DNA of 59,842 nucleotides from an uncultured Gammaproteobacteria bacterium (GCA_964541395.1 CAZIPM010000003.1:24655-84496), one strand, 5' to 3'. Shown: positions 5,718 through 59,628, counted from the stretch's first letter. The notes: generated by a model not told the origin, from the sequence alone. A program made the numbers and translations.

Positions 5718-5718
5718 A

Positions 5719-22496: not shown

Positions 22497-22515
22497 TTTT
22501 ATATAGGATGTTACT
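22479..22515. promoter_or_regulatory. Perfect 10-bp inverted repeat bracketing the -10 box and covering the start codon of 22508..24409
   Basis: AGTAACATCC (22479-22488) and GGATGTTACT (22506-22515) are exact reverse complements, separated by 17 nt that contain TATATA. Confidence 0.6.
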
Positions 22516-36293: not shown

Positions 36294-37421
36294 TTAAATA
36301 ATAAAATCTAAATAATTCTCTTGGGTAATTGTTTTGAACTCAGAATTATTATATGAATTAATCCAAGCTTTTTCTGATTTTCTTGATTTTAATTTACCCC
36401 ACTTAAATTCAAACGCAAACAATTTACCATCTCTTTCTTCTACCCAATCTATTTCATTTTTATCCCAAGTTCTCCAAAAATAATTATTAGAATAAATCGG
36501 TGTATACTTTTGATTTTTAAGCCTTTCTATGGCTAAAAAGTTTTCCCAAAGCTGTCCAACATCATTTCTTGAATCAATTTCGTTAAAGTTATTAACTACT
36601 GCATTTCTAATCCCTAAATCATAAAAATAATATTTACTTTTACTCGTTATTTCCTTTCTTAAGTTTCTACTGAAACCCCTTAAATTAAATAGTACAAATG
36701 ATTGTTCTAAAAGCCATAAATATCTAGCAACTGTTTTTCTATCAATTCCAAGGTTTAAACCTAATTCAGTAAGCGAAACTTCGCTACCTACTTGAAAAGC
36801 AATAAGTTTTAACAAGTCCATCAATATTTTTGAGTCAGATACTTTTTCAAGATCAATAATGTCCCTGAAAAGATAGGAATTTGTAATATTATTCAAAAGA
36901 TTTATTTTTTCGGCACGATTCGAAAGTTCCAAAACTGCTGGATAACTTCCATAGACCAAAAAATCTTCTTTTTTTAATTCTAAATCATATACTGACAAGC
37001 CTTTTTTTAATTCTTTTTGTGATACAGGATATAGTACATAATCAAATTTTCTACCTACAAGCGGTTCTCCTACACGATAAGATAGACTTAGAGACGAAGA
37101 TCCCGTAATCAATACCTTTATTTTAGGATTATTATCAACCAAAATTTTAAGCCCCAGCCCTACATCGTGAATTCTTTGCGCCTCGTCAATTACAATCAGT
37201 TCATATCCCTCAATATATTTATCTATTTGCTCTTTACTCCTTGAGGTTAAGATTTTAGAAATTTTTATGTCATCACCATTATCTAATCTATATTTTAATT
37301 TAGTATTTTTTAAAAATTTATTAATCAACGTAGTTTTACCAACTTGTCTTGGGCCATAAAGTACAACAACTTTACCCCCTTTTAATATTTTATCTAAATC
37401 GTCATAAATTCTACTAATCAT
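36294..37421 (-). CDS. AAA+ ATPase with DUF4143/PD-(D/E)xK-like C-terminus (COG1373 type)
   Basis: 375 aa. Walker A LYGPRQVGKTT, Walker B LIVIDEAQ, C-terminal EIDWVEERDGKLFAFEFKW. Clear paralog of 44230..45345. Confidence 0.85.
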   Translation of the reverse strand: MISRIYDDLDKILKGGKVVVLYGPRQVGKTTLINKFLKNTKLKYRLDNGDDIKISKILTSRSKEQIDKYIEGYELIVIDEAQRIHDVGLGLKILVDNNPKIKVLITGSSSLSLSYRVGEPLVGRKFDYVLYPVSQKELKKGLSVYDLELKKEDFLVYGSYPAVLELSNRAEKINLLNNITNSYLFRDIIDLEKVSDSKILMDLLKLIAFQVGSEVSLTELGLNLGIDRKTVARYLWLLEQSFVLFNLRGFSRNLRKEITSKSKYYFYDLGIRNAVVNNFNEIDSRNDVGQLWENFLAIERLKNQKYTPIYSNNYFWRTWDKNEIDWVEERDGKLFAFEFKWGKLKSRKSEKAWINSYNNSEFKTITQENYLDFII

Positions 37422-37577: not shown

Positions 37578-40500
37578 TTACACGATTATCTTCTTTTTCT
37601 TTTTAAACCTAGAGGCAAACTTTTTAAGAATTGGGTAAAGGCCAAGAAGCAGAAATGGATTTTCAGGAACAGTAGTAAATTCAGGTATAACCGTATAAGT
37701 ATCAAGCAGACCACCACCCGAGGTAATAACCCGCACACAGTATGCAACACCATTTGAGGCTGAATTATCAACAATTGTAATATCCCACTTTCCGTCATTT
37801 CCTGCAGCGATTGAGTTTATACCTGTAAAGTTATTTGATTCTTCATATGTTTGGAAATTTATTGTATGACCACTATGTGTAGGGTCACTACCGGTTGGCG
37901 TCATACTAGATCCATCGGTTGGAGTCGGGTTGTCATAAAATCGGATAACTCCCGCTGAAGGAGACAGATCAGCATACGTCTCACCTGAAAAAGCGGTATC
38001 ACACGTACCGCTTCTCTCGGCAATCTGAATTTTAAAATCATCTCCTGTGCCGTCAAATTGGTTACCACCTACATGCAGTAAGAATCTTAGCCTTATTACC
38101 TGGCCGTCAGCTGTCATATCTGCTGCTGTGTCTTGAGCTGCCAGATCAGGACCTATTGAAGTTGAATCAAGGTTTTGGAAAAATCTGTATGCCGATTGAT
38201 TAAAGGTGGTAATTACTTTTTCTCCATACCATGAAAATCCACTGTCCCCCCCTGAAGTACTTTCATACCAGTATCCGTATACTTTATTGCCTCCGTTTCC
38301 TGAGGAGTGGGTAAATAGTTGGCCTTTTAGATATTCTAATGTTAATTGGTCAAGTAGGTTTGTATCTGTGGTCCATCCACCATCGTTTATTGCCGCGTCA
38401 TAATCAAGATCTGCGTCGTTGGTCGGAGAAAATATCGAATACTGTTTATCGGTTACCGAATCTACAACCAAATCAGCTACTGGTTGGTTACTGGAAGTAC
38501 CGGTAGGACTGTGGCGGATTCCCGTTGCAGAAATTTGTTTTCTGGCTCCGGGAGTACCGTTTGTCAGGGTTACGGAATAGAGTATCGAATCGGAATTATC
38601 CATCACACCCAGCATTATTTTTTCATTTCCTGTGCCTTCTTCGGTCCAATATACCGCAGGGGTTGTTGCCCAGCTATTGGTAGTTGCCTGAGCGTCAGAT
38701 TCTATCGTTGTGGGACTTCCACTTAAAGAATCTGCAGATGTCAGGCTTTTATATAGTACGTCTTCATTTGTATCATCTTTGTAAAAAATGTGTGTCTTAT
38801 CACTTGCTCCAAGTACAGCTCCTGAATAAACAAAATTAGTTGATGCCGTAGTATCCAGATTGACTTGCGTACCCCAAGGTGGTCCACTACTGGGTCGAAT
38901 TTTATAACCCACTCTTTGATTGGTACCGTCACTATATCGGTAAAAAACGACTACTGTTCCGTCACTCCGCTTTATTATTCCACAGGTTTGGTTAGCAGGA
39001 GCGGTACCCGGAGTTACTACAGCCTCATCCACAATCCCCCAAGTATCAGAGTTTGTGGAATGATCCGACAATCTAAAGGTGTGGTAAGTTACATTTAGAC
39101 TACCTGTTCCTTCCTGTACACAAATGTGTAACGTATCCCCACTTTGAAAAACATCAACACCCTCCAGATCATTTACTGTAGGACTGCCGGAAGTTCCTAC
39201 CAAATCCCAGTTTTTGCCTCCATCGGTCGATTTGAGCATTTCAGGTTCATTATTACCGGTCCCTGCAATATATGTAGGTTCAATCATAAAATATAGATTG
39301 CCGTTTGTATCCTTAAATGGTCCTGCCCTGCCAGTTGTTTCCATCATTGAAGGACTTAAAAAATAGTCGGGCATATTGACTGTAATTCTTGGATTCATCA
39401 TAATTCCTGTAAAAAGCGTGCCTGCACTTTCCGATAATCGGAATTCCAACTGATTATTATCTTTCATCCTGTTTGGACCACCCCAAGTACCTAAAATCAT
39501 AATTGTAAATTCATATTCAGCATGTTCATTGGAGATTGTTATGGCACCCGTTGTACGGTTCTCTTCTCCAGTTCCTCCGGTATCAAACGTCTCTGCACTT
39601 CCTGCTAATATATTTTGGTTGGCTGCGTCTCCATCGGCATATTGATTTGAATCAAGAACCTGTAACGGACCATCATAACCGGCTTCAGCCCGGTCGGGTG
39701 AATCTGCCCAACTACCCCACAATCCCGTACTCGTTCTAAATCTATATTGTAATTTCCAAGACGTGCTACTCCCTGTTCCGTTCGGCTGCTCAACTTCAAA
39801 TCTAATACGAAATCTTTTACCTGCGTCCATTGTTGCATAGGTATTTAGATCTGCAGCCCAGCCGACAGTATCATTTAAAGTTAATGTGTCATCACTTCTG
39901 ATTCGGTAATAGGGCTGATGATATCCTCCCGTAGTTGCAGTTACTATTAACGGACAATTATCGTATGAAGAAAGAGCAGTCCCGGCATCGGAAATCCTAA
40001 AACGGTATACTGTACTTTGAAAGGATCCGGTTCCTTGAATCGCCCATTCCCATTCCGATTGTGTTTCGTTTAAAGCAACACCGGTGGTGTCTTCATTTTG
40101 TGTATCAAAAATGTTGCCTGCAGTAAACGTTTTGTTTGACGTGGTAAGCTGGTTTGTAGTAGCATCATCATTTGTGATATTGCTTGAATTTGTCACTCGC
40201 CAGGCTGTAGTGGATGTATCAAGTGCGGTCCAAGTTCCATTATTGCAGTTAGTTGCATCCGTAGAATATTCAAGACGGGCGTTTAAGGTCATTGAAACAG
40301 TACTGTGTGCTTCAATTCTCAATCTTATAATTTCTGTGGGGCCGACATAGTAGGCGTCGGTATTTTCATCATCTTTCCAAGTTGCTGTTGTCTCACTCCC
40401 ATCATCCGTACGAAATCTGTGTGAAGTTTGAGAAGTAGCTGTCGGTGACCTAAGAGCAATTGACATCATCCCCTTTAAGGTATTCCCTGTATACGTTAAA

Positions 40501-43500
40501 ATTGTATTCCCATAGTTTCCTGCAGTGGCTTTCTGTCCGTCAAAAATCGATAATCCTCCGTCATTACCTACCGTTGATGAAGCTGTAATTCGCGCGGCAG
40601 AAATGTTAGCCAGATTCCCATTTGAAATAGATGTTATAGGTAATGCAGTATCAATGTCTGCGGTACCTACAATTACGACAAGTCGGTCAGCTCCACTTGT
40701 TGAAGCTCCCGGTTCAGCTCCTGAAGTATCGGATGACGAATCAGTATTCCCACTTGTTACATCCCAAGGATTTCCCGACGTTTCAATACCTGTCCAGGCA
40801 CAGATTGCTCCGATTTGATGATTACCTGAGTCAGATACTGTCGGAGCAGTTTGTGTTCCATTATAACGACTCCAGAATACTGTCAATCTGGTTCCCGTTA
40901 CGCTTTGAGGGCTATTTGTCACTTCAGTCCAAGTTCCACCGGCACTGTCGCTGACTGTTATAGCTTGGGCATCTGTTTCTATAAACAGAAGGAGTATATC
41001 GTTGGTAGTCAGCCCGGAAGGTAATGGTGCACTTACAGCATTTACTGAGGCAAATTGTGTTCCACAAGCCACAAAAGTTGGCAGTGCAGCGAGTGTTTCA
41101 CCTATTCTGGGTGGAAATCGAGGTTTATTCCAGATGATGGGAAATCCTGATAATAACCATGATGCAATTAAAGATGAAATTATCACTATCTTAAAAACCT
41201 TTTTGAAAGTTCTCTTGTTTCTTCTGGCAAAATATATTAGAACAAATACTGTAAATACTACAATTAATAGAAGTATAATCTTCAATGTTTCCATCGAAAC
41301 CTGGCTAACTCCACTAACGACCACTTTTTGCACCACCTCTGCACTGGCTAATGCGTCTCTGGGTGTGAATGATTTAAACAAGCTGGCCATGGAATGGTTT
41401 TCCTCCCCCATCCTTTCAACTCTGACTTGGACAGGAAGATCAGATATTGATCCTGTTTTGACACTCATTCCAAGGTAAGAAATTGTCACTGAAGAGACTA
41501 GAAGTACAAGTAATACTAAATTGCCAACATACCTATTCATCTTAGGTTTTATAGAAAATGAGTCAAAAGTGTTATGAGCAGTTTTAAGTTCTAAAAAATT
41601 CATATCCAAAGCGGGAATTTTGTTGGGAATAATCCCTTGAATAAATCGGTAAAATTTTCCCCGGATGAAAGTATCCGTTATTCTTCCTGTTTTAGGTGTC
41701 CTGAACCAAGGTCCCTCATGTGATTGGATGAATCCTTTGACAGCAGAATATGCCTGGAAAGGAGCAACCAAATATGAAAGGGCTATAAATGAGCCAAGAC
41801 CGGAATAGTCTTTATGTTCCGACTCCTCCAAAAATAGGCCAACTGCATTAGTCAGGGGAAGAGAAATCATATTAGTTAAAACCAAACTCCAACCCCAAAG
41901 TTCAGTCCAAAAGGGCAAACGTACTTTAAAGATAGCTTCAGATACCAACCAGCTGAATGTTCCAATCAAAAAAAACAGTGCTTGAAGATAGTATGGAGTT
42001 AAATAGATAAGTTCAAATTTTTCAAAGATTGATAAATGATTTGAAAAAAGAAGCTTGAAAAACATCTTTTTAACATTGAATGAATGCCCTTCCGCCCAAC
42101 GCATTCGTTGTCTTATTAAGCGGTTTAATGTAGACACACATTCGGCAGGTGCCTGAATGTAGGGAGTGTATAAAACCTTGAAGCCTTTTTCATATAACTT
42201 TAAAGTGAGTTCAAAGTCTTCAGTAATAGAAGATCCCCAACCAACACTCTCTAATGCATCCCGTCGTATCATATAGACAGATCCTGAAACCTGCTTTAAT
42301 CCCCCATAAATTTCAATTCCTGAGCGTTCTACTATATATGAACCGGCATATTCGGATCTGACACCTCTTGTTATCCAGTTTTCAGATTTATTAAGAACAT
42401 GCCATTGGTAGCCTTGTACAACTGCAGTTTTCGGATCATTTTGTGTTTGGAAATATTTCAAAAATAAAGTCAAAGTGTCAGGATACGGTACAAAATCTGC
42501 ATCAAATACTGCAATCTTTTCGGTTTTAGGATCAGATAAACTAAGAGCCAGTTTGAGCGCTTGTCCTTTATATCCGCTCCTTGTATTTCTATGAAGATGT
42601 TTGAAGGTTACTCCAGGCTTAACTTCGATTTCTGTCATCTCCCAACCATCTCCGTTTGTCACCGTCAAACTTTCTTCCTTAAAAAGGTATCGTTTTTGGT
42701 AGTTTTTAATTAATTCACTTGTTTCATCTGTCGAATCGTCTGCTAAAATAATTTCATAATTCGGATAATCAAAAGAAGTTAAAGCTTGGGATAATCTTTC
42801 AACAACATTTTTTTCGTTATATAAAGCAACATGAACAGAAACAAATGGCTTATTTATAAGAACTATATTGTCGAGGTTTGACTCAAGCCCTAATATCTTT
42901 GAATCGTTTAAATTCTTATTACCTAACAACCAATTTAGTAAACTCCCCCTTATACTTTCTTTAATATTTTTCTTTTTTAAATCTTGTTGGGAATATGAAA
43001 GAACTATGGCAAGGGTTAGATAATATTTAAGTGAATACAAAAAGAAAAATGATCCCATAATTAGTGATATTCCTGCGAACATCATCCCTACTGAATTAAT
43101 AATTGGTAATATCTTAAAAATCGTTAAAAATATAAAAAGGCTAAAATATGAAGACAAAATGAAGTAAAGCCATAATTTACTTCTTTTGAGAGGTGGAGCT
43201 GGTGCTACATTTGGTACAAACTGTTCTGTAATAGATCTATCTCTATCAATAACTTGTGATTCTGTAGCCGCAACAGGTTCAGTGCGATGTGATACCGAAT
43301 ATGCCATGCGATTAGACATTTTATTCAGATTGTTCCTGTCCATTATTTTCCAGATAGTCCAACTTGATACCTGAACTATCCCTGCAATTTGCTTTGCAGT
43401 TAAATTGGGATTATTTACTACCATAGATAGTACTTCCTCTTCAATCCTCGGATATACTGCTTTGTGGTGGTCATCTCCTCGTCTGTATTTATCTAAATAT

Positions 43501-44000
43501 TCAATATTACTTTGATAGTCTTTTACCCATTTATATATAATGTTACGGGAAACATTGTAATTTCTTGCTAGCTCAGATACGTTTCTCGAATCCTGAAGGC
43601 ATTTGGTCACTATTTCCTTTTTAACATCAGGCTTAAATCTACCAGGGCCTAAATAGTTTCTGCAATAGTTGAGCCTAGTATATTCATCAGTTAACCCTAA
43701 TTTATTTAAATAATTCTGTACATCAAATGAACTTATATGAAAATTCATTTCCCTAAGATGAGTAGAATATTGCTCAGAAGTAAATTTAGGAGATTTACAT
43801 ACCAGTCGTATCAGAATCTTATATACTTTTTTGTCAAACAAAGTAGGTTTAGGCTCTGGTGATTTACTATTTTTTGAATCAACCAGGCATTTATATATAG
43901 TACCCCTGGCTACATTATATTCTCTGGCCAGAGAGGCTATAGAAGCTTGTTTGACTTCAAGTCTTTTTAATATATCCAGTTTTGAATAGGCAGATAACAT
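37578..44000 (-). CDS. Giant 2: fusion of HTH(x3)-TM-processive GT2 synthase-TM-ectodomain-VPENP C-terminal sorting signal; no adjacent exosortase
   Basis: 2140 aa.
- HTHs at aa 1-235: YNVARGTIYKCL, YNVSRNIIYKWVKDY, VSSWTIWKIMDRNNL.
- GT2 at aa 384-639 (nt 42084-42851): ADDSTDE, VFDADF, SITEDFE, RQRMRWAEGH.
- Extra TM pair near aa 880-950 (IILLLIVVFTVFVLIYF, then VIISSLIASWLLSGFPII).
- Ectodomain with the Asp-box KSTDGGKNW (39207-39233).
- C-terminus TVPENP-FLLLGLYPIL-KKFASRFKKKKKIIV. Confidence 0.88.
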   Translation of the reverse strand: MLSAYSKLDILKRLEVKQASIASLAREYNVARGTIYKCLVDSKNSKSPEPKPTLFDKKVYKILIRLVCKSPKFTSEQYSTHLREMNFHISSFDVQNYLNKLGLTDEYTRLNYCRNYLGPGRFKPDVKKEIVTKCLQDSRNVSELARNYNVSRNIIYKWVKDYQSNIEYLDKYRRGDDHHKAVYPRIEEEVLSMVVNNPNLTAKQIAGIVQVSSWTIWKIMDRNNLNKMSNRMAYSVSHRTEPVAATESQVIDRDRSITEQFVPNVAPAPPLKRSKLWLYFILSSYFSLFIFLTIFKILPIINSVGMMFAGISLIMGSFFFLYSLKYYLTLAIVLSYSQQDLKKKNIKESIRGSLLNWLLGNKNLNDSKILGLESNLDNIVLINKPFVSVHVALYNEKNVVERLSQALTSFDYPNYEIILADDSTDETSELIKNYQKRYLFKEESLTVTNGDGWEMTEIEVKPGVTFKHLHRNTRSGYKGQALKLALSLSDPKTEKIAVFDADFVPYPDTLTLFLKYFQTQNDPKTAVVQGYQWHVLNKSENWITRGVRSEYAGSYIVERSGIEIYGGLKQVSGSVYMIRRDALESVGWGSSITEDFELTLKLYEKGFKVLYTPYIQAPAECVSTLNRLIRQRMRWAEGHSFNVKKMFFKLLFSNHLSIFEKFELIYLTPYYLQALFFLIGTFSWLVSEAIFKVRLPFWTELWGWSLVLTNMISLPLTNAVGLFLEESEHKDYSGLGSFIALSYLVAPFQAYSAVKGFIQSHEGPWFRTPKTGRITDTFIRGKFYRFIQGIIPNKIPALDMNFLELKTAHNTFDSFSIKPKMNRYVGNLVLLVLLVSSVTISYLGMSVKTGSISDLPVQVRVERMGEENHSMASLFKSFTPRDALASAEVVQKVVVSGVSQVSMETLKIILLLIVVFTVFVLIYFARRNKRTFKKVFKIVIISSLIASWLLSGFPIIWNKPRFPPRIGETLAALPTFVACGTQFASVNAVSAPLPSGLTTNDILLLFIETDAQAITVSDSAGGTWTEVTNSPQSVTGTRLTVFWSRYNGTQTAPTVSDSGNHQIGAICAWTGIETSGNPWDVTSGNTDSSSDTSGAEPGASTSGADRLVVIVGTADIDTALPITSISNGNLANISAARITASSTVGNDGGLSIFDGQKATAGNYGNTILTYTGNTLKGMMSIALRSPTATSQTSHRFRTDDGSETTATWKDDENTDAYYVGPTEIIRLRIEAHSTVSMTLNARLEYSTDATNCNNGTWTALDTSTTAWRVTNSSNITNDDATTNQLTTSNKTFTAGNIFDTQNEDTTGVALNETQSEWEWAIQGTGSFQSTVYRFRISDAGTALSSYDNCPLIVTATTGGYHQPYYRIRSDDTLTLNDTVGWAADLNTYATMDAGKRFRIRFEVEQPNGTGSSTSWKLQYRFRTSTGLWGSWADSPDRAEAGYDGPLQVLDSNQYADGDAANQNILAGSAETFDTGGTGEENRTTGAITISNEHAEYEFTIMILGTWGGPNRMKDNNQLEFRLSESAGTLFTGIMMNPRITVNMPDYFLSPSMMETTGRAGPFKDTNGNLYFMIEPTYIAGTGNNEPEMLKSTDGGKNWDLVGTSGSPTVNDLEGVDVFQSGDTLHICVQEGTGSLNVTYHTFRLSDHSTNSDTWGIVDEAVVTPGTAPANQTCGIIKRSDGTVVVFYRYSDGTNQRVGYKIRPSSGPPWGTQVNLDTTASTNFVYSGAVLGASDKTHIFYKDDTNEDVLYKSLTSADSLSGSPTTIESDAQATTNSWATTPAVYWTEEGTGNEKIMLGVMDNSDSILYSVTLTNGTPGARKQISATGIRHSPTGTSSNQPVADLVVDSVTDKQYSIFSPTNDADLDYDAAINDGGWTTDTNLLDQLTLEYLKGQLFTHSSGNGGNKVYGYWYESTSGGDSGFSWYGEKVITTFNQSAYRFFQNLDSTSIGPDLAAQDTAADMTADGQVIRLRFLLHVGGNQFDGTGDDFKIQIAERSGTCDTAFSGETYADLSPSAGVIRFYDNPTPTDGSSMTPTGSDPTHSGHTINFQTYEESNNFTGINSIAAGNDGKWDITIVDNSASNGVAYCVRVITSGGGLLDTYTVIPEFTTVPENPFLLLGLYPILKKFASRFKKKKKIIV
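37581..37673 (-). other. C-terminal tripartite sorting signal of giant 2 (IPEFTTVPENP motif, hydrophobic helix, poly-K tail)
   Basis: TVPENP FLLLGLYPIL KKFASRFKKKKKIIV. Nearly identical to the giant 3 signal. Confidence 0.6.
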
Positions 44001-44229: not shown

Positions 44230-45345
44230 ATGATAATTAACAGGAAGATTGAGCCTGCTATAATAAATAGACTTTTTCAAGGAAAAGTTATAGTAATCTA
44301 TGGTCCAAGGAGATCAGGTAAAACTACTTTAGTCAAAAATATTCAAGGAATGTATCATTCGGAAAGTATATATTTAAACTGTGACGAACCTGACATACGC
44401 CAAGCTTTAACAGATAAAACATCTACTGAACTTATAAATTATGTCGGTAAGAATAGACTGGTAATAATTGACGAGGCTCAGAGAGTTAAAAATATCGGAA
44501 TTACACTAAAACTTCTGGTGGATAATTTTCCGCAAACTCAAATTATAGCCACAGGCTCCTCATCTCTTGACCTTTCAAATAAAATAAATGAACCTTTAAC
44601 GGGACGTGTACTTGACTTTTTCCTACCTCCTTTTTCACTTAAAGAGATATCTGAAGATAAAATTGAAGCTATAAGAAATCTTGAACAAAGAATGATCTAT
44701 GGAAGTTACCCTGAAGTAGTGATGGATATCAAAAATGCGGAAGAAAATATTAGAGAAATATTTAAAAAATATCTTTACAAAGATGTATTAGAATATCAAG
44801 GGATTAAAAATCCCGATGTACTGGAGAAACTTTTAACAGCTTTGGCTCTTCAGATCGGATGTGAAGTTTCTTATCCTGAGCTTGCAACGCTTCTCCAGAT
44901 TGATCAAAAAACTGTAGCTTCGTATGTACGACTTCTTGAATTTGCATTTATTATTTTCAGATTACCTCCACTTTCCAGAAACCTCCGTAAAGAAATTGCC
45001 AAATCAAGAAAGATATATTTCTGGGATTTAGGCATTCGAAATGCAGCAATAAATAACTTTAATTTGTTGGAAATGAGATCAGATGTTGGAAACTTGTGGG
45101 AAAGTTTTTTAGTCTCAGAAAGAATGAAAACAAACCAAATCCTAAGAAAGTTTCCAAATAAATATTTCTGGAGAACTTGGAGTAAAGAAGAAATTGATTA
45201 TATTGAAGAAGAAGGTGGAACTTTTAGTGCTTTTGAAATTAAATGGTCAAAATCAAACAAAAAACCATCAAAAGTGTGGACTGATGCATATCCAAATTCA
45301 GATTGGAAAGTAATTACAAAAGAAAACTTTTTAGATTTTATTTGA
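44230..45345 (+). CDS. AAA+ ATPase with DUF4143/PD-(D/E)xK-like C-terminus (COG1373 type)
   Basis: 371 aa. Walker A IYGPRRSGKTT, Walker B LVIIDEAQ, C-terminal EIDYIEEEGGTFSAFEIKW. Its 3' end overlaps the convergent exosortase gene by 15 nt. Confidence 0.85.
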   Translation: MIINRKIEPAIINRLFQGKVIVIYGPRRSGKTTLVKNIQGMYHSESIYLNCDEPDIRQALTDKTSTELINYVGKNRLVIIDEAQRVKNIGITLKLLVDNFPQTQIIATGSSSLDLSNKINEPLTGRVLDFFLPPFSLKEISEDKIEAIRNLEQRMIYGSYPEVVMDIKNAEENIREIFKKYLYKDVLEYQGIKNPDVLEKLLTALALQIGCEVSYPELATLLQIDQKTVASYVRLLEFAFIIFRLPPLSRNLRKEIAKSRKIYFWDLGIRNAAINNFNLLEMRSDVGNLWESFLVSERMKTNQILRKFPNKYFWRTWSKEEIDYIEEEGGTFSAFEIKWSKSNKKPSKVWTDAYPNSDWKVITKENFLDFI

Positions 45346-45921
45346 ATTTTTGTAGTCAATAAATTTTTCATCCAGAACATAAGTATAGCTAAACCACCAG
45401 AATGTGATCAGCCAAATAAGTGTTAGAAATGCAGCAAAGTAGTCATGAATTATCTGAGCTGCAAGCGAATTGATGTAATAAATTCCTATGGCTATAATAC
45501 TCATCCTGAAAATGTTAAGAAGAAGTGTTCCAAAAAGACCCAGTGCTACACACTTTGCTCTAGATAGATTAGTATAGTTACCTTTAAGACCAGCAACCAA
45601 AGAAACAATGAGAAGCAAAGCTGACTGCCAACCCAAACAGTTCCAAGACAGATCAACAGGTATACTTGTCCCTTTCTTAATCATATAGAAGGTTGAAAGC
45701 CTGGAGTTGGGAGTTACCCTTGAATCAATACCAAATGGAGAAATGGCAACTGCCACCATTCTTGCCTGCCAAGGAACTATATACTTTTGAATCGGACGCC
45801 ACCAACCTGCATGATTTAACCCTTCCGTAAAAAAAGAATTCATTGCAGCAAAAACAGGAAGAAGTGTCATGACAATTACAAATCCAGCCAAAATAGTTTT
45901 GAATGTTTTCTTTTGTTCCAT
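45331..45921 (-). CDS. Minimal exosortase/archaeosortase-family protein (putative transpeptidase for giant 3 and probably giant 2)
   Basis: 196 aa with about 5 TM segments. Motifs: WNCLGWQS (CxGxxS), LLNIFRM (NxxR), IHDY (His). It shares PIQ..IVP, C[IL]GWQS, NIFR and IWL..FWW with the 28318..28884 product. Its start lies 3 nt after the giant 3 stop. Confidence 0.65.
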   Translation of the reverse strand: MEQKKTFKTILAGFVIVMTLLPVFAAMNSFFTEGLNHAGWWRPIQKYIVPWQARMVAVAISPFGIDSRVTPNSRLSTFYMIKKGTSIPVDLSWNCLGWQSALLLIVSLVAGLKGNYTNLSRAKCVALGLFGTLLLNIFRMSIIAIGIYYINSLAAQIIHDYFAAFLTLIWLITFWWFSYTYVLDEKFIDYKNSNKI

Positions 45922-45924
45922 AAC

Positions 45925-48900
45925 TTATAGTACTGCTTTCTTTTTCTTCTTTATTCTTTTAATCAGTTTATTAAACAAAGGATAAAGACCAAGAAGTAGT
46001 AGTGGATTTTCAGGAACAGTTGTAAATTCCGGAACTACTGTATATGTTTCAAGAACCGAGTTATCAGATCTAACTACTCTTAAGCAGTAAGTGGTATTGT
46101 CTGCTGCTGCATTATCTTCAATAGTAAAGTCCCATTTACCATCTTCCCCTGCTCCAATTATAGCTTGTGAATTAGTAAAGTTGTTTGCTTCTTCATATGT
46201 CTGATTTCTATTTGTATGACCATGCGTGGGATCATTGGTATTATTGGTTAGTGCTGCGCCGTCAGTAACTCCACCTCCGTTATTATCAAAGTATCTAATG
46301 TTTCCGGATGAGGGAGATAAATCGGAATATGATTCGTCGGTAGTTCCCATATTAGTGTCACATGTTCCTCCAACTTTGGAGGCAATTTGAATTTTAAAGT
46401 TATCACCCGATGATGCTAATTGGCTTCCTCCTATATGGAGCTGTAATCTCATTCTGATGACCTGACCATCTGATGTCATCCCAGCAGCGGTATCTTGGTT
46501 GGCAAGTACGGCACCGACATCTGTAGAATTGTTGTTATAAAAAAATCGGTAAGTAGATAAATCATAATAAGTAACTACTTTTTCATCATAACGAGCAAAA
46601 CCCGTTGCACCGGCGGACCCGTCGTCCCAAACATAACCAACAACTTTCGCGCTACCGTTACCGGCACTATGGGTAAACAACTGCGCCCGGAGCCAATCGG
46701 CTCCATTCGTCGGATCTTTTTCCTGAACATCCGTAGTCCAGCTCCCGGATACCCGGGTATCGTAATAGATATCATCGGCATCCGTACTATTAGCAAACAA
46801 CGCATGGAGCTTGTCTGTTGCATCATCCGCCGCGATGTCTGCTATCGGTTCTCCGTTTTGTCCCTCCTGAAACTGTATCGCCGCGTCGCTGACCACGGTT
46901 TCGGAGGGAGACGGTGTATCTCCTATCGCCCAGGTGGAAATGTATAATTTGTTGTCATCGATATCCCTGTACGAAACACCAACCCGTTCCGTGGCTCCAT
47001 CTGTCCAATTGATAAGCGGCGTGAGATCCGCATAATCGCTAGACGTGCTCATGTTGGCGGTAGAGGGGCCATTGATGAGTACCCGTCCGTTGAGCACATC
47101 GCCGGTGGTAAGTGTTTTGACATATATATTGAGTTTACTGCTTGCCATGGCGGTATAGACGATATGGATCCTGTCGGTTGAGTCCCGTATCACGGCAGCT
47201 GCTAAGGTATCGGTCGATGCCGTGGAATCCAGGCGGATCGGAGCCGCCCACGTCCCTCCGGAAGAGCGGATGCTGTACCAGAGCTGTTCATTGGACCCCG
47301 ATAATGCACCCCGGTAAACAGCAATCGTGGTACCGTCACCCCGCCGCACAATTGCGGCTTGCTGCGCGCCAGGGCTCACATCTTCGATCAATTGGTCATT
47401 CACTGCCCAGGTATCCGGGGTCGTAGCATGGGTGGAAACGTTGAACTCATAGTAATTAGCCGAATCACTGTTGTTCGGGCCCTGCATGGTAATATAGAGC
47501 GTATTCCCCCGCAGATCCATATCCGCAGCTTCCAGATCGAACTCCTGGGAAGCAGTGGAAACCCCGACCGGGTTCCATGAGTCCCCGCCGTCCGTTGACT
47601 TCATCATCGCCGGACTGTTGCTGCCGCTGCCGGTTTGGATATCTGTATACTCGGACAGATAATAGAGATTTTTGTTGCCGTCGACAGCAAAGTAGCGCAT
47701 CGGCGTTTCCATTACCGATCCGCCGATATGGCCGACTCTATTGGAAATCGTGACCGTCGGCGTTTGACTGTAGGTCGTGAGTATCCCACCACCAGAGCGG
47801 CGGAGCCGGAATTTATAGGTCGTCCCATCGGCATTGTGCCCCTGCTCTTCGTAGAGTTTGCGCATCAGGACCGGAAATTCGTATTCCGTATGTGAGGGGT
47901 CTGTAAAGGATACCGACGCTGCCTGATAATCTTCACTCCCGGTTCCGGCGATAAAAGTTGCAGCACTTTGGGACAGCAGGTTAGTTGTGGCCGCGCCATC
48001 GACAAACTGCGCAGACGGGATAACCTGCGCCCCCCATTGCCCGCTGGTGGAACCCGCTGCCCAGGGGGTTGCATTATCCGGACCCCGCCGATAGTCGCCG
48101 TCATTTCTCGAGTACCATAACTCAAACCCTGAAGCGAGTGCGCCGCCGCTGGGGCGTTCGACTTCGAGGCGGATACGGAAATCGTAATCCGGATTGATAC
48201 TTGCGTTTGAATTAAGCGTATTTGCCCAGTCTGCATCGGCATTGGCACTGAGCGCCTTACTGTCATCCGCCCGGATCCGGAACGCGGTCTGAGAAAACGT
48301 CGGGGTCGAGGTGCCGTTCATCCGTATTTCCGCACCCAGTCCGATCCAGTTGGCGCTCGTCGGCGACCAGCTGGCACTGCCGGTTGTTTCGAATGCATCA
48401 CCTCGGTATTGCGTTTCCAACGCCTTGCCCGGATTGGATGTAGCCAGATCATCAAGCTCTGTCCAGTTAGTCCGGAATGTCGTTGCTTCATTGACAGGAT
48501 GGGCAAAGGCGGAAATTGGCCGGTTGTTGGAATCCTGAGCTGAAGCAAAAGGGATCGACCCGCTGGTTGCGGCTGTACCGGTAGCCCGGGCCAGCTGCAC
48601 AAACGCTCCAGAGACGCCGTTTGTTAAATCGACTCCGGAAACGGAAAAAAAGCTCGCAGCCAGTCCGGCCTGCGTAAAGTTCCCGAAATCAAACGTAACC
48701 GTACCATTTTGGGATCCGCTTGCCGCGGCGGCATACAAAAACAACCGTTCCCGATCGAGATATACTTCGTCGATAAGCGTATACGTAATGTTCTGTGTAT
48801 TGGTCACGGTGGGAACCGGTGGACGTTTAGAGGTCGGCGCATGCGCCAGAACAAATACGATAACCATGCCGGAAGTCGGCGGGGTCCAGGCACTGGATTC

Positions 48901-51900
48901 ATACGTCTTGGAATCAGTGCCGGTGTTGATGTCCCCGCTCTGATTGGTAAAAGCCAATGCATTAGTACTCACTGTAAATGTTGGTGTGGCTACAATTTGA
49001 CTTGCTCCGACAAGAGCTGTTGCGGGAATAGTTGCAGTTATAGTTTCCTGAGCGGTTATATTATAAGAAGCAAAAGCGTCAAGTGTAATAGTTACCACAG
49101 TATCACTTGTCCGGGCGACATTTGCTACACTGATATTATTTTTTACGATAGTATCCCAGCCGGTTCCTTCAGATTGAGCTGAGTCTAAACCGGATCTAAT
49201 TTCATCCCGTTGATTATCAAATGTTGATCCGGATGCGACCCAGGTGGTTCCTGTTAGGGTCAGAATAACTGTCTTACCCCCGGTGACGATATCTGATTCA
49301 GCTATACTCGCTGTCACCGTTCCGGTAAGCGCAGCTGTTGGTTCATAAATTGCTGCCAAAATTGTAATTGGGTTTGTATTTGTCCAACCGGTCGACGTAA
49401 CAGTGTCAGAAGTAAGAGTCGCAATACGTGTTTGCACATGTGTGGCTATATTAATATCGAGAGCTCCTGTAGTTGAAGTTATTGTATCAATCCTCTCGGT
49501 ATAGTCTGCATCAGCCGCCTTGGCTGCATCTTCTCCTTCTGATGCCGCAGCTCCAATAAGTAAATACTCACGGGATGGAAGTGAAGAAACTGAAGCTGAT
49601 ATTGCAGCTTGTCCTACTCCGACTTGTTCAATAGCCCAACCTGTACCGTTACCGAAAGTTGCTTCAAAAACCGAAATAATTTTATCGACTTTGGCTGTGC
49701 CCAAAGTCAATGTTATTGAGTCGGTGGTATCGATCTGAGTTGTGACCTTTGTCGCAAACAATCCTACAGTTGAACCATCATCTGCTGCTCCATCTGTTTC
49801 TGTATACTCAGCAATTCTGGTCCAGGTATGCCCGTCTGTATCGGAAATTGAATGCAGTGTACTTGCACCGTCTGCTGTCTGATTATTGTCTGAGGCAGTA
49901 GCAACAAATGCTATTTTACCGACTGTGATATTGGCATCGGGAGATACTGCTACAGTCGTACCGCTTGCATCGTTTGTGTCAGCAAATCCACGGACAGTTA
50001 CGGCTGAAATGGTGGCTTTTGCTTCTTCAATTTTAGGTGGAAATCTGGGCTTATTCCAAAAAACAGGATAGCCTGATAATAACCAGGAAGCAATTAGACA
50101 AGACACAACCACTAATTTAATTGCCCTCTTGAATGTTCTTTTGTTTCTTCTGGCTAAAAATATTAAGGCAGACAATGTAAATATAACGACTAAAGCCAGA
50201 GAAACTTTCAGAGTCTCCATTGAAACCTGTTTGACCCCACTGACAACTATTTTTTGTACTTTGTCCGCACTGGCCAGAACTTCAGTCGGTGAGAATAAAT
50301 TTAACAAAGAAGCCGTAAAATTGCCTTCATCTCCAACCCTTTCTACTCTGGTTTGAATAGGAAGGTCTGCTATTGATCCAGTCTTTATGGTGCTACCCAG
50401 ATATGAAAGTAATATCGATGATAATACTGAGATTATTACAACGAAATTACCAATCAGGCTGTATTTTTTGGGCATAATTTTAAAGGAATCAAATTTACTG
50501 TTGGCTGTTGTTAAAGCTAAGTATTTATAGTCCTCCTTCAGTTCTCCATTAGAACCAATTGGTTTAACCGGCAAGATGCCTGAAATGAAGCGGTAAAATC
50601 TACCTCTGGCAAAGATGTCAGTAATTCTTCCTGTTTTTGGAGTTCTGAACCAAGGACCTTCTTCTTTTTCGATAAATCCTTTAACTGCTGCATATGCCTG
50701 GAAAGGTACTATTATATAGGAGAGGGCCATAAAGCTGCCCAGTCCCAGATAGTCTCTTTCATCCGACTCCTCCAAAAATAACCCTACGGAGTTAAGAAGA
50801 GGAAGAGAAATCATGTTGGTTAAAACCAAGCTCCATCCCCAAAGCTCGGTCCAGAAAGGCAAACGCACTTTAAAGATGGTTTCCGAAATTAACCAGGATA
50901 GAGTTCCTACCATAAAAAACAAGGCTTGAAGGTAATATGGAGTTAAATAGACAAACTCAAATTTCTCAGCTTTGCTAAGATTGGGATTAGTCAAAAGTTT
51001 GCTAAACATCTTTCTGACATTAAAAGAGTGCCCTTCTGCCCAACGCATTCTTTGTCTGATCAGTCTCTTAAGTGTAGAAGCACATTCAGCGGGTGCCTGG
51101 ATATATGGAGTGTAAATTACTTTGTAACCTGCATCATATAATCTTAGGGTCAGTTCAAAGTCCTCTGTAATAGAAGTCCCCCATCCCAGTTCTTCCAGTA
51201 CATCCTTTTTGATCATATAAACGGAACCTGATATTTGTTTTAATCCTCCATAAATTTCAGCACCCGATCTTTCTATGACATAACTTCCTGCATACTCCGA
51301 TCTGACTCCCCTGGTTATCCAGTTTTCAGATTTATTAAGAACATGCCACTGGTAGCCCTGAACAGCCGCTGCTCTTGGATCATTCTGTGCCTGGAAGTAT
51401 TTCAAAAACAAAGTCAGTGAATCAGGGTAAGGCACAAAATCAGCGTCGAATATCGATACTTTTTCGGTTCTGGGATCAGATAATTTTAAGGCCAAATTTA
51501 AAGCGCCACCTTTATAACCGGATCTTGAAGATCTATGAAGATGTTTCAGGGTTACTCCCGGCTTAACTTCAACTTCTGTCAGTGTATACCCCTCCCCTTT
51601 AGTAATTTTCATTTTTTCTCCCTCAAACAAATACCTTTTCATCCTGGTTTGAATAATTTGGGTAGTCTCATCTGTTGAATCATCACACAAAATAACTTCA
51701 TAGGCAGGATAGTCAAACGAAACAGCTGCATGGATGGATCTTTCCACAACATTCTTTTCGTTATAGAAAGGAATCTGGACCGAAATAAAAGGTTTTTTGG
51801 TAAGCTTGATATGAGAAAGATCAGCGGTCAAACCAACAGATGTCTCATTTCCTGTTTTATTCTTTTTAATCAGCCAATCAAGCATGCCACCCGATGCCTG

Positions 51901-52632
51901 ATCAATAATTTTTCCTTCTGTCTCCTTCTGTGAGAATGACAAAACCAAGGCCAAAGTAAAATAATACTTTAAAGAATAAAGGAAGAAGAACGAACCCATT
52001 ACCAATGCCGTTAAGGCAAATGTAATTCCTATTTTATAACCCAGACCACTTCCCGCAGCGTCTCCGTATGCATAACTGCCGATTCCGGCTATTACAATAG
52101 TAGTAAAGAGACTGAGGCTGAATATTGAAAACAATTTGATATAAATATGCCTTTTTTCCGCCGGTATTTTGAAGAAGTCGGAAACTGATACCAGGATTTT
52201 TTCGATAAAGCCGACAACCTGAGTATGTTGACCTGTGGCATATGCCTGTCTTGATTCATAAAGTGAAAGGTTGTGCCTCCTTAAGACGTTCTGTACTCCA
52301 TGATGTCCCACAATTGGCGAGTTTCCTATCTTGGGAAGGTTTTTAACCAGAGTCCTGATGCCCCATTCGGGATGTTGTGAAACCAATGAAAGTATTGATT
52401 CTTCATACTTATCCGGGGTTTGATGCCAATACCTATCAATTATTCTTTCTCTATTAACAAGTTCTGCTTCACCACTAGTCTTTTGTTCTTCTTCCCTCCT
52501 TTTGAGCCACTTATAGATGGTCACCCTACTTACACCATACTTTTTGGCAACTTCAGAGATACTTTGCTTCTGATCTAATACCTCAGAAATCATTAAATTT
52601 CTGGCTTTTGGTGACAGTTCGTTTGGTACCAT
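45925..52632 (-). CDS. Giant 3: fusion of IS481-like HTH module-TM-processive GT2 synthase-TM-ectodomain-VPENP C-terminal sorting signal
   Basis: 2235 aa.
- HTH module at aa 1-130: YGVSRVTIYKWLKRREE ... PEWGIRTLVKNLP ... HGVQNVLRRHNL.
- GT2 at aa 280-535 (nt 51028-51795): CDDSTDE, IFDADF, SITEDFE, RQRMRWAEGH.
- Extra TM pair as in giant 2.
- Asp-box KSTDGGDSW (47575-47601).
- C-terminus TVPENP-LLLLGLYPLF-NKLIKRIKKKKKAVL. Confidence 0.88.
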   Translation of the reverse strand: MVPNELSPKARNLMISEVLDQKQSISEVAKKYGVSRVTIYKWLKRREEEQKTSGEAELVNRERIIDRYWHQTPDKYEESILSLVSQHPEWGIRTLVKNLPKIGNSPIVGHHGVQNVLRRHNLSLYESRQAYATGQHTQVVGFIEKILVSVSDFFKIPAEKRHIYIKLFSIFSLSLFTTIVIAGIGSYAYGDAAGSGLGYKIGITFALTALVMGSFFFLYSLKYYFTLALVLSFSQKETEGKIIDQASGGMLDWLIKKNKTGNETSVGLTADLSHIKLTKKPFISVQIPFYNEKNVVERSIHAAVSFDYPAYEVILCDDSTDETTQIIQTRMKRYLFEGEKMKITKGEGYTLTEVEVKPGVTLKHLHRSSRSGYKGGALNLALKLSDPRTEKVSIFDADFVPYPDSLTLFLKYFQAQNDPRAAAVQGYQWHVLNKSENWITRGVRSEYAGSYVIERSGAEIYGGLKQISGSVYMIKKDVLEELGWGTSITEDFELTLRLYDAGYKVIYTPYIQAPAECASTLKRLIRQRMRWAEGHSFNVRKMFSKLLTNPNLSKAEKFEFVYLTPYYLQALFFMVGTLSWLISETIFKVRLPFWTELWGWSLVLTNMISLPLLNSVGLFLEESDERDYLGLGSFMALSYIIVPFQAYAAVKGFIEKEEGPWFRTPKTGRITDIFARGRFYRFISGILPVKPIGSNGELKEDYKYLALTTANSKFDSFKIMPKKYSLIGNFVVIISVLSSILLSYLGSTIKTGSIADLPIQTRVERVGDEGNFTASLLNLFSPTEVLASADKVQKIVVSGVKQVSMETLKVSLALVVIFTLSALIFLARRNKRTFKRAIKLVVVSCLIASWLLSGYPVFWNKPRFPPKIEEAKATISAVTVRGFADTNDASGTTVAVSPDANITVGKIAFVATASDNNQTADGASTLHSISDTDGHTWTRIAEYTETDGAADDGSTVGLFATKVTTQIDTTDSITLTLGTAKVDKIISVFEATFGNGTGWAIEQVGVGQAAISASVSSLPSREYLLIGAAASEGEDAAKAADADYTERIDTITSTTGALDINIATHVQTRIATLTSDTVTSTGWTNTNPITILAAIYEPTAALTGTVTASIAESDIVTGGKTVILTLTGTTWVASGSTFDNQRDEIRSGLDSAQSEGTGWDTIVKNNISVANVARTSDTVVTITLDAFASYNITAQETITATIPATALVGASQIVATPTFTVSTNALAFTNQSGDINTGTDSKTYESSAWTPPTSGMVIVFVLAHAPTSKRPPVPTVTNTQNITYTLIDEVYLDRERLFLYAAAASGSQNGTVTFDFGNFTQAGLAASFFSVSGVDLTNGVSGAFVQLARATGTAATSGSIPFASAQDSNNRPISAFAHPVNEATTFRTNWTELDDLATSNPGKALETQYRGDAFETTGSASWSPTSANWIGLGAEIRMNGTSTPTFSQTAFRIRADDSKALSANADADWANTLNSNASINPDYDFRIRLEVERPSGGALASGFELWYSRNDGDYRRGPDNATPWAAGSTSGQWGAQVIPSAQFVDGAATTNLLSQSAATFIAGTGSEDYQAASVSFTDPSHTEYEFPVLMRKLYEEQGHNADGTTYKFRLRRSGGGILTTYSQTPTVTISNRVGHIGGSVMETPMRYFAVDGNKNLYYLSEYTDIQTGSGSNSPAMMKSTDGGDSWNPVGVSTASQEFDLEAADMDLRGNTLYITMQGPNNSDSANYYEFNVSTHATTPDTWAVNDQLIEDVSPGAQQAAIVRRGDGTTIAVYRGALSGSNEQLWYSIRSSGGTWAAPIRLDSTASTDTLAAAVIRDSTDRIHIVYTAMASSKLNIYVKTLTTGDVLNGRVLINGPSTANMSTSSDYADLTPLINWTDGATERVGVSYRDIDDNKLYISTWAIGDTPSPSETVVSDAAIQFQEGQNGEPIADIAADDATDKLHALFANSTDADDIYYDTRVSGSWTTDVQEKDPTNGADWLRAQLFTHSAGNGSAKVVGYVWDDGSAGATGFARYDEKVVTYYDLSTYRFFYNNNSTDVGAVLANQDTAAGMTSDGQVIRMRLQLHIGGSQLASSGDNFKIQIASKVGGTCDTNMGTTDESYSDLSPSSGNIRYFDNNGGGVTDGAALTNNTNDPTHGHTNRNQTYEEANNFTNSQAIIGAGEDGKWDFTIEDNAAADNTTYCLRVVRSDNSVLETYTVVPEFTTVPENPLLLLGLYPLFNKLIKRIKKKKKAVL
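45928..46020 (-). other. C-terminal tripartite sorting signal of giant 3
   Basis: VPEFTTVPENP LLLLGLYPLF NKLIKRIKKKKKAVL, read from the translation. Confidence 0.6.
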
Positions 52633-58311: not shown

Positions 58312-59628
58312 TTAAACAGTATTCAAGGAGTCCAGAAACTCATCAATTCTTTCTAAAAGATAAAACGGCAAAGACAAAATCTTATATTTTTTACCACCAT
58401 AATTATATTCTTCAATTCCAAATGAGTCCCAAGAAACACGCACAGGAAAAACTTTGTCCCCTCCTATATCGATCATGCTAAATAAAGATTTTAAATTTTT
58501 GGTATTTCCTGATTTTACTTCGATACCCACTATTTTATCTTTATGTTGAAAACAAAAATCTACTTCTGCGCTCCCCTCATCTTTATTTCTTGACCAATAA
58601 ACTAATTCTTCACTTCTTCTTAAGCCTTTTGAAATCAAAATTTGACCTACTGATTGCTCCATTATTCTGCCTTTATATTCACCTTTTAAAATCTCAATAC
58701 TTATTCGGTTAATAAAATTAACAATTCCAACATCAAGCCAAATCATTTTCTTGGCTCTTTTAAATTTGTTAATAAAAGGTAAATTAATTGAGTTTATGGA
58801 AGGAATTTCTTTTAAGAGCATTACTTTTTGTAACATATTAATAGCTTCGCCAATTTCACGGCTCTTATATTCTGAGCCTCCAAAATTTTCATATTTATAA
58901 ACCCCTCCCGCAATTTTAGGGCCAAAATCCATAACTAATTCTAAATATTTTTTATTGGATGTAGTTGAATATTTGTCTAAATCTTCTTTATAAGATAAGA
59001 TTAATCTACTATGGATATCTTGTACTTTAATAAAACTATTATCCTTTACGAAACTTGAAACAGCTTCAGGCATACCACCGACCAATAAATAATTTTTGAA
59101 ATGATTTATTAACAAATCATGAGTTACCCTAAAATTATTTTTCTCTATAAATCTTTCTTGACCATGTGCTTGTAAAAATTCAAAAAAGGTCATTGGATAT
59201 AAATACATATACTCAACTCTTCCTACAGGAACACTCCATTTGCCTGCCATTTTAGCTTCAAGTAAGGACCCCGCAACAATTAAATGTAAATTAGGCTTAT
59301 CCTCTGCAAAAAATCTTAACAATTTTAAGGCTTCCAACGATTCTTGAATTTCATCTATAAAAAGGAGCGTTTTACCTTCTACAACAATTTCGTTTGTCAA
59401 AATTTCTGATCTTCTAATAAATTCTGAAACAGTATCAGCCCCTTCAAGAAATCTCTTTTGAGCTGATTGCTCAAGATTAATTTCAATTAAATTATCAAAA
59501 TTCTCTTCTGCAAATTTTCTCACAACTGATGTCTTTCCAACTTGTCTTGCTCCAGGCAATATTAATGGTTTTCGAATTGAAGATGTTTTCCATGCTTTGA
59601 GCTCATTTTCTATATTTCTTGTAAGCAT
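58312..59628 (-). CDS. AAA+ ATPase with DUF4143/PD-(D/E)xK-like C-terminus (COG1373 type)
   Basis: 438 aa. Walker A LPGARQVGKTS, Walker B LLFIDEIQ, C-terminal AEVDFCFQHKDKIVGIEVKS. Confidence 0.85.
   Translation of the reverse strand: MLTRNIENELKAWKTSSIRKPLILPGARQVGKTSVVRKFAEENFDNLIEINLEQSAQKRFLEGADTVSEFIRRSEILTNEIVVEGKTLLFIDEIQESLEALKLLRFFAEDKPNLHLIVAGSLLEAKMAGKWSVPVGRVEYMYLYPMTFFEFLQAHGQERFIEKNNFRVTHDLLINHFKNYLLVGGMPEAVSSFVKDNSFIKVQDIHSRLILSYKEDLDKYSTTSNKKYLELVMDFGPKIAGGVYKYENFGGSEYKSREIGEAINMLQKVMLLKEIPSINSINLPFINKFKRAKKMIWLDVGIVNFINRISIEILKGEYKGRIMEQSVGQILISKGLRRSEELVYWSRNKDEGSAEVDFCFQHKDKIVGIEVKSGNTKNLKSLFSMIDIGGDKVFPVRVSWDSFGIEEYNYGGKKYKILSLPFYLLERIDEFLDSLNTV

Follow-up and report, generated by a model that had tools for sequence, protein, structure and literature searches.

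Mosaic genes formed by intragenic transfer are known from the penicillin-binding-protein genes of Streptococcus and Neisseria, and from the tail-fibre genes of phages. Here we describe a comparable gene, giant 3, in a stretch of 59,842 nucleotides of metagenomic DNA (CAZIPM010000003.1:24655-84496), which is referred to below as the window, with positions counted from its first letter. Giant 3 is one of three paralogous genes for giant proteins, and contains a GC-rich block of about 2.34 kb that is very probably a foreign cassette of two modules (A and B), recently imported in frame into this one of the three giants. As in the mosaic genes mentioned above, the foreign block lies in a continuous reading frame between native flanks, and is set off from them by an abrupt shift in composition and divergence as well as by discordant ancestry. 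Unlike the classical cases, the unit concerned is a whole pair of modules that is 32–36% identical to the resident paralogue, rather than part of an allele of a nearly identical gene; the contrast in G+C content at third codon positions (GC3) is very large (0.59 versus 0.32), the donor was not found, and the recipient is a giant surface protein fused to a family 2 glycosyltransferase (GT2), most likely of a candidate-phyla-radiation bacterium. Mosaic genes and the exchange of receptor-binding modules are already established, and giant 3 is a particularly clean, not an unprecedented, example.

Tandem giant extracellular proteins have been described in Apilactobacillus kunkeei, where they are named Giant1–5 (PMC12863079). 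Giants 1–3 resemble those described there in being very large surface-protein genes arranged in a row and having modular extracellular parts, and differ from them in domain content. In our literature searches, we found no description of the giant protein family or of the giant 3 mosaic.

Extent, codon usage and ancestry of the GC-rich block

The block comprises codons 1229–2007 of giant 3 (Table 1). The initial annotation had given its limits as 46590–48950, and the change points fitted to the GC3 series (46612–48948) are essentially equal. GC3 is 0.593 within the block and 0.321 in the remainder of giant 3, and the comparison with the equivalent region of giant 2, which had been chosen in advance, shows a strong difference (0.59 versus 0.32). 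In windows of 200 nt, GC is 0.50–0.60 from about 46600 to 49000, and 0.31–0.46 on either side within the open reading frame (ORF), while GC3 in windows of 100 codons is 0.52–0.67 in the block, 0.22–0.33 in the adjacent ectodomain and 0.24–0.37 in giant 2. The log-likelihood ratio of the change-point fit is 77 for giant 3, compared with 4.6 for giant 2 and a maximum of 11.6 in permutations (n = 300). For module B by itself, 336 of 572 third positions are G or C in giant 3 versus 182 of 571 in giant 2 (Fisher p = 6e-20). Earlier hand counts of G+C were reproduced (40 of 60 nucleotides at 47221–47280, 27 of 60 at 38881–38940, and 19 of 60 at 45961–46020, where about 20 had been noted), and the peptide GSAGATGFARYDEKVVTYYD reported for the boundary is encoded at 46561–46620. 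According to the ORF list and the translation, the giant 3 frame is open throughout, both boundaries included, as had been stated. The swarm of long ORFs in other frames that was noted over the block is confirmed in so far as the seven off-frame ORFs of giant 3 that reach 80 residues or more lie, without exception, within 46575–49182, but the signal is only modest, because the giant 2 ectodomain also has five.

To what extent the residues encoded by the block account for its GC content can be judged from the codon usage of the 22 other long ORFs, together with giant 3 outside the block, applied to the block residues. This predicts GC 0.445–0.452 and GC3 0.32, compared with observed values of 0.55 and 0.58–0.59. 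Amino-acid composition as the cause of the block, which predicts GC 0.45 and not 0.55, and GC3 of 0.32, is therefore rejected. For the upstream ectodomain (residues 881–1224), expected and observed GC agree (0.444 and 0.442). Because the expected GC of the block equals the observed GC of this low-GC3 ectodomain, the rest of the rise comes from synonymous codon choice. Thus, the view that amino-acid composition explains only part of the rise holds: the residues lift GC from about 0.36 to about 0.45, and synonymous choice gives the remaining 10 points or so. The difference between observed and expected GC3 has a standard deviation (SD) of 0.063 in background windows of 100 codons, and the windows of the block, with a mean of +0.25, lie about 4 SD above the background.

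The block carries a foreign, non-host codon usage. CGG accounts for 57% of the arginine codons in the block and 3% in the host, AGA for 6% versus 54%, and CTC and CTG together account for 63% of the leucine codons versus 17%. Relative synonymous codon usage in the block correlates negatively with that of the host (r = -0.24), compared with r = 0.95 for the rest of giant 3. Among the sets tested, the codon preferences of the block correlate best with those of a phage locus, L038 (r = 0.41).

The edges of the block coincide with domain boundaries, and with a switch of nearest relatives. Within the block, giant 3 is closest to proteins of other organisms (48–67% identity), among them P0002 (locus L003). 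The scaffold on both sides, i.e., the part with helix-turn-helix (HTH) domains, GT2 and membrane segments as well as the C-terminal module, has the character of the host and is similar to the paralogues. The proposal of the initial annotation that recombination took place into a conserved scaffold is supported by the identities to giant 2, which are 56% for the N-terminal part, 32–36% for the block and 57% for the C-terminal part. In windows of 40 residues, identity to P0002 rises from 0.20 to 0.57 at residue 1221, and the best match changes from P0002 to giant 2 between windows 1981–2020 and 2021–2060, i.e., at about residue 2020; both switch points are within about 10–20 codons of the GC3 change points. 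Many otherwise unrelated proteins contain a module A domain with 40–48% identity, which aligns from giant 3 residues 1212–1243 to about 1421–1461, and homologues of module B align as far as residues 2012–2020. At the 3' boundary, the collinearity with giant 2 that had been reported is confirmed. The 5' boundary is not collinear with giant 2, and giant 3 residues 941–1445, module A included, have no detectable giant 2 counterpart.

Neighbour joining of the module B sequences, which gives a rough distance tree with no support values, places the giant 3 and giant 2 copies in different clades. The giant 3 copy is sister to a low-GC clade, the contigs of which look cellular where neighbour genes are informative, and the giant 2 copy groups with a contig of 56% GC and a phage clade. 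Nucleotide searches (blastn, word size 7) gave no second copy of the block in the window and no DNA similarity to giant 2, which excludes a template repeat or an internal duplication in the window as the source. Surface proteins of the candidate phyla radiation are often targets of diversity-generating retroelements; the same searches gave no near-identical template repeat of such an element in the window.

The locus with the block in place recurs at 99.6% identity or more in six other contigs or scaffolds, which derive from sources with the BioSample labels SAMN03202994, SAMN03202996 and SAMN03202998, from MEGAHIT-style k127 and k141 contigs, and from a Logan assembly. Both junctions are present in L001 (a k127 contig), L002 (a scaffold labelled SAMN03202994) and L065 (a 127-kb scaffold labelled SAMN03202996), and the 3' junction is present also in L063 (a k141 contig), L064 (a scaffold labelled SAMN03202998) and L066 (the Logan assembly). 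Breakpoints at the block edges, for which a check by read mapping had been planned beforehand, are absent from these independent assemblies, where every break lies inside the block. As judged from this comparison of assemblies, the block in place is reproducible and an assembly chimera is unlikely.

Table 1. Features of giant 3 and its paralogues in the window, with amino-acid identities to giant 2 and to P0002
Feature	Position	Strand	Identity to giant 2	Identity to P0002	Basis and properties
GC-rich block, codons 1229-2007	46612..48948	minus			Two-change-point maximum-likelihood fit to GC3 series, permutation test, codon usage
5' junction support interval, codons 1221-1234	48933..48972	minus			Change-point fit; P0002 and stand-alone module A proteins become similar to giant 3 from here on
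3' junction support interval, codons 1984-2013	46594..46681	minus			Change-point fit; within most conserved family motif LFTHSxGNG..KVVGYxWD..GxTGFxRYDEK
Module A, aa 1225-1445	48298..48960	minus	Absent	59%	GC3 0.58; predicted beta-sandwich, AlphaFold2 pLDDT 90.6, pTM 0.90
Module B1, aa 1446-1640	47713..48297	minus	32%	67%	Predicted beta-sandwich (model); identities
Module B2, aa 1641-2017	46582..47712	minus	36%	48%	Predicted beta-propeller (model); one Asp-box
Conserved N-terminal scaffold, aa 1-880 (HTH, GT2, transmembrane region)	49993..52632	minus	56%	50-residue match only	Pfam, identities
Ectodomain upstream of block, aa 881-1224	48961..49992	minus			Host codon usage; GC3 0.28, GC 0.44
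Native C-terminal module and membrane tail, aa 2018-2235	45928..46581	minus	57%	24%	GC3 0.25
Giant 2 module B, aa 1360-1930 (paralogous comparison region)	38211..39923	minus			GC3 0.32
Giant 1	28881-35291	minus
Giant 2	37578-44000	minus
Giant 3	45925-52632	minus			2235-aa ORF (ORF list, translation)

Modules A and B and their homologues

Neither module gave a significant match in Pfam, NCBIfam or among PDB sequences. The structure predicted for module A (Table 1) has its best match in BFVD at E = 4e-20, with a query-normalised TM-score of 0.87; the matches are proteins of tailed phages (Caudovirales), and many of them are mycobacteriophage 'minor tail proteins'. A fold search of the PDB gave no convincing match for module A, only weak jelly-roll or lectin-like ones with a best TM-score of 0.27. 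The model of module B is of moderate confidence (pLDDT 74, pTM 0.75), and comprises a beta-sandwich followed by a beta-propeller. In its predicted propeller fold and single Asp-box, module B2 resembles the Photorhabdus PHL/PLL propeller lectins, GH33 sialidases, GH145 and PL42, with a Foldseek probability of 1.0 and target-normalised TM-scores of 0.55–0.71. Unlike these lectins and glycosidases, module B2 has no family match in Pfam, NCBIfam or PDB sequences; sequence identity is 9–16%, and the likeness is one of predicted fold, in a model of moderate confidence. The Asp-box, STDGGDSW at residue 1679, is the sole motif of the type S-x-D-x-G-x-x-W, and module B has neither a Pfam BNR or sialidase signature nor repeated Asp-boxes.

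A second group of described proteins that the modules resemble is the tail-tip and minor tail proteins of siphoviruses, with which they share the predicted fold of module A, the modular shuffling seen across the family, and a genomic context in which homologues of both modules directly follow genes of the tape-measure and Dit type. In L022, a predicted siphovirus contig, the tape measure and Dit genes are followed by a gene for a 617-residue protein with an N-terminal module A. In L045, the order is tape measure, Dit-like minor tail protein and a 979-residue module B protein, and thereafter genes for minor tail proteins and tail fibres. Among IMG/VR loci, 20 have module A and 12 have module B, mostly at 53–66% GC, whereas 185,579 species-representative genomes gave one hit per module (Acidimicrobiia and Gemmatimonadaceae, both distant); the scans were pattern-based, and the counts are therefore indicative only. 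Unlike the siphovirus proteins, the giant 3 modules are part of a membrane protein of a cell, to which a glycosyltransferase is fused, and phage genes are absent from the vicinity. They are 34–49% identical to the phage versions, and none of four giant 3 segments matches any PHROG family at E <= 0.01. The block acts like a captured module, and not like part of a phage. Since only fold similarity and tail-gene context bear on function, we propose tentatively that the modules may be glycan-binding or glycan-processing units similar to those at phage tail tips.

The closest homologues of the block are found in contigs of 38–44% GC, namely P0002 (L003), P0003 (L013), P0005 (L014), P0006 (L015) and L004. 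Their GC3 is 0.31–0.42, equal to that of the neighbour genes where this was checked, and the high GC3 of the block is therefore not intrinsic to modules A and B. Module B is present also in contigs of 53–63% GC, with GC3 0.60–0.72, and module A in viral contigs, most of which are of 55–66% GC. Because GC3 of about 0.59 accompanies a contig GC of about 0.55–0.57 among the homologues (L038, L017 and L023), the donor genome would be expected to have a GC content of about 52–57%.

The search for this donor covered 5.8 billion proteins, where nothing above 56% identity was found except other assemblies of the giant 3 locus, the species-representative genomes, where a scan with the single protein found nothing, and metagenomes, where a scan gave only homologues of at most 52% identity. 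The ceiling in the collections searched is 56% protein identity and 67% nucleotide identity, and the donor may be unsampled. As regards the claim of the initial annotation that the segment came from a much higher-GC donor, import as such is supported by composition and ancestry, while the donor was not found and 'much higher-GC' is derived from composition.

Two homologues are compositionally unusual in their own right. In L007 (SDBU01002122.1), a 1016-residue ORF at 5521–8571 is a second intragenic mosaic, in which residues 1–700, comprising an N-terminal domain and module B, have GC3 0.51–0.72, while GC3 is about 0.3 in the C-terminal repeats of the 'IRVLGLVRQEDE' type and 0.36–0.47 in the flanking genes. 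In L054 (8897–12376; isolate DBS2-5.bin62), a homologue of the GT2 giants has GC3 0.56–0.64 over most of its length, compared with 0.38–0.54 for two other long ORFs of this locus, and may be a further compositionally atypical member of the giant family.

The three giants and their genomic setting

The window, which has an overall GC content of about 0.36, matches a contig from a groundwater metagenome (ENA ERZ909588; run SRR1658462, PRJNA268031). Its genes are for glycan biosynthesis, giants, and AAA_14/DUF4143 ATPases, with phage structural genes absent, and no tRNA genes were found in it. The first 22 kb hold envelope-glycan biosynthesis genes (four GT4 glycosyltransferases, a carbamoyltransferase, a UDP-glucose dehydrogenase and an epimerase). 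One ATPase gene of the AAA_14/DUF4143 type lies beside each giant (26983–28242, 36294–37421 and 44230–45345), in a regular pairing, and one further along (58312–59628).

Giants 1–3 are paralogues in which N-terminal HTH domains of transposase type are combined with GT2, membrane segments and an extensive extracellular part, and their N-terminal parts are about 75% identical to one another at the nucleotide level. In giant 3, the N-terminal HTH, GT2 and transmembrane segments are followed by a modular ectodomain and a hydrophobic, Lys-rich C-terminal tail; Pfam matches are to HTH and to the GT2 models Glyco_trans_2_3, Glyco_tranf_2_3 and Glycos_transf_2. Its scaffold (residues 1–880) is 56–57% identical to those of giants 1 and 2. 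The HTH-GT2 scaffold is 50–67% identical to genes of Candidatus Woesebacteria and other Patescibacteria, in whose genomes HTH-GT2 giants are also commonly found as tandem paralogues. The source of the window is therefore most likely a bacterium of the Woesebacteria type within the candidate phyla radiation.

The placement of 1–3 HTH domains of transposase or resolvase type ahead of a membrane GT2 (N-termini at 52330–52632, 43500–44000 and 34400–35291) is common to all three giants and to related giants of other genomes; this architecture is unusual, and no reason for it is obvious. At the C-termini (45925–46020, 37578–37670 and 28881–28990), a VPE(N/K) motif is followed by a hydrophobic stretch and a Lys-rich tail, which resembles sorting signals of the PEP-CTERM type; no NCBIfam model of a known C-terminal sorting signal matched the giants.

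Some other parts of the window show smaller deviations in composition. At the conserved end of its GT2/membrane region (codons 651–850, 32742–33341), giant 1 has a short GC3 bump of 0.50–0.59, and similar bumps are present at the same position in the related giants L050, L051 and L055 of other Woesebacteria/Patescibacteria genomes. Giant 1 is heterogeneous overall (maximum log-likelihood ratio 24), with GC3 of about 0.4 in the N-terminal half and about 0.25 in the ectodomain. Among related GT2 giants of Woesebacteria and other Patescibacteria, no long GC3 block was found, only the short bump mentioned above, which recurs where the conserved GT2 region ends. After the block and the giant 1 bump, the next strongest compositional outlier of the window is an ORF of 633 residues at 22508–24409 (plus strand), which has no Pfam match, GC3 0.42 overall, and windows of up to 0.53.

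The assemblies also differ from one another in places. At 33239–33270 in giant 1 they disagree or break (L065 has a gap of undetermined bases and a divergent stretch, and L066 ends at 33269), which could reflect strain variation or a repeat common to the paralogues. Two clusters of seven substitutions each divide the assemblies into haplotypes, at 45598–45619 in a 196-residue ORF (45331–45921) and at 50748–50842 in giant 3. The former variant is common to L002, L063, L064 and L066, and the latter is found in L002 alone, together with a 6-nt deletion at 50296–50301. Both clusters look like small conversion or recombination tracts.

Origin and significance of the block

In the explanation that we favour, the donor would be a genome of about 52–57% GC, from which a cassette encoding modules A and B, in this order, recombined in frame into the extracellular part of giant 3. 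The 3' crossover would have made use of the strongly conserved end of module B, or been tolerated there. Since the codon usage of the block has not yet converged on that of the host, the transfer would be recent on the time scale of such a drift. By analogy, such a swap of modules would alter what giant 3 binds on a partner cell or polymer, and the surface repertoire of the cell would be diversified by paralogues that differ in their sets of modules.

Several observations weigh against this explanation. Neither a donor nor a near-identical high-GC sequence was found in the collections searched, and the closest relatives of the block (P0002–P0006, 46–56% identity) are in low-GC contigs and have host-like GC3. 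The junctions lack a recombination signature, with no flanking direct or inverted repeats beyond short ones at chance level, and no mobile-element genes. Contig ends or scaffold gaps occur inside the block at 47166 (where L063 and L064 start), 47269 (the start of L066), 48083 (a gap in L065) and 48624–48643 (a gap of ten N in L002); these internal breaks may come from strain heterogeneity or from a GC-related drop in coverage. Finally, the function suggested for the modules is based on similarity of predicted folds only.

As for the donor, a higher-GC bacterium with a surface protein of the P0002 type, where the exchange would be between homologous surface-protein genes, is the better candidate, with a likelihood that we put slightly short of even. 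The A-then-B order in P0002, together with the highest identities to the block (59%, 67% and 48%), points to such a protein as donor, and the N-terminus of P0002 resembles the membrane-proximal segment of the giants. In the module B tree, the sister clade of the giant 3 copy is cellular-looking, and L014 and L015 have cellular neighbour genes (ClpP, sortase, DsbD and P-type ATPase). All sampled members of this clade are however of low GC3 (0.31–0.42), which makes a high-GC member hypothetical, and modules A and B are missing from the loci with the GT2-giant scaffold that were retrieved from genomes of Woesebacteria and other Patescibacteria.

It is rather unlikely that the donor was a tailed phage, or a prophage, with a GC content of about 55% and with modules A and B in its tail-tip protein, although the abundance of the modules at the tail tips of mostly high-GC phages keeps such a donor in play. 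In addition to the 20 module A and 12 module B loci in IMG/VR, mostly at 53–66% GC, this proposal is in agreement with the fold matches of module A to Caudovirales and mycobacteriophage 'minor tail proteins' (query-normalised TM-score up to 0.87), the position of the modules directly after tape-measure and Dit-like genes in L022 and L045, their rarity in the 185,579 species-representative genomes (one hit each), and the codon preferences of L038, which are the best match to those of the block (r = 0.41). It is difficult to reconcile with the low identity of the phage versions (34–49%), with the lack of a PHROG family for the giant 3 modules, and with the finding that A and B are adjacent in no viral contig fetched. 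Furthermore, the closest relatives, P0002–P0006, are in low-GC contigs that do not look viral, and P0002 itself has A followed by B on a membrane-anchored protein resembling the ectodomain of the giants.

Cultivated members of the candidate phyla radiation are episymbiotic. A more specific, and improbable, version of events is that a presumed episymbiotic Woesebacterium retargeted one of its attachment giants with a receptor-binding cassette from the phage or prophage pool of a higher-GC bacterium, possibly its attachment partner. If this were true, a phage device for host recognition would be reused as a symbiont adhesin, with the unconverted codons catching the event shortly after it took place, and the L007 mosaic would suggest that such captures recur.

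That the block is native, and that its GC3 was raised in place by selection on codons or mRNA structure, by GC-biased mutation or by gene conversion, is highly improbable. The smaller GC3 bumps elsewhere in the gene family (giant 1 at 32742–33341, and relatives) and the failure to find a donor would fit such a shift, which nevertheless leaves the switch of nearest relatives at the compositional edges unexplained. It would also require that arginine codons changed from AGA/AGG to CGG/CGC by two-step synonymous paths within exactly two modules, the homologous modules of other low-GC genomes show no such rise, and the window holds no second copy that could have been the conversion partner. Least credible of all is a chimeric metagenome assembly, with a homologous segment of a co-occurring higher-GC organism spliced into the contig: the window is indeed a metagenome contig, the 3' junction falls within a motif conserved at the protein level, and several assemblies break inside the block, but none of them breaks at its edges, both junctions are in frame and at domain boundaries and recur under three BioSample labels and in MEGAHIT-style and Logan contigs, the composition changes within about 10–25 codons, the protein clusters contain no second, non-chimeric version of giant 3, and splicing would require exact shared k-mers of 127–141 nt at both ends between genomes with GC3 of 0.3 and 0.6.

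Domain-level transfer into genes is known in principle, but rarely is it so clean as in giant 3, where the doubling of GC3, the reversal of codon preference and the switch of relatives occur at the same two domain boundaries. On a practical note, binning or chimera filters based on composition could wrongly flag the giant 3 contig. Giants of the candidate phyla radiation seem to diversify by swaps of whole extracellular modules on a conserved HTH-GT2-membrane scaffold, and their pool of modules is shared with siphovirus tail-tip proteins. If the modules set the binding of the partner, this locus would offer a tangible starting point for the study of host specificity in ultrasmall bacteria that have not been cultivated.

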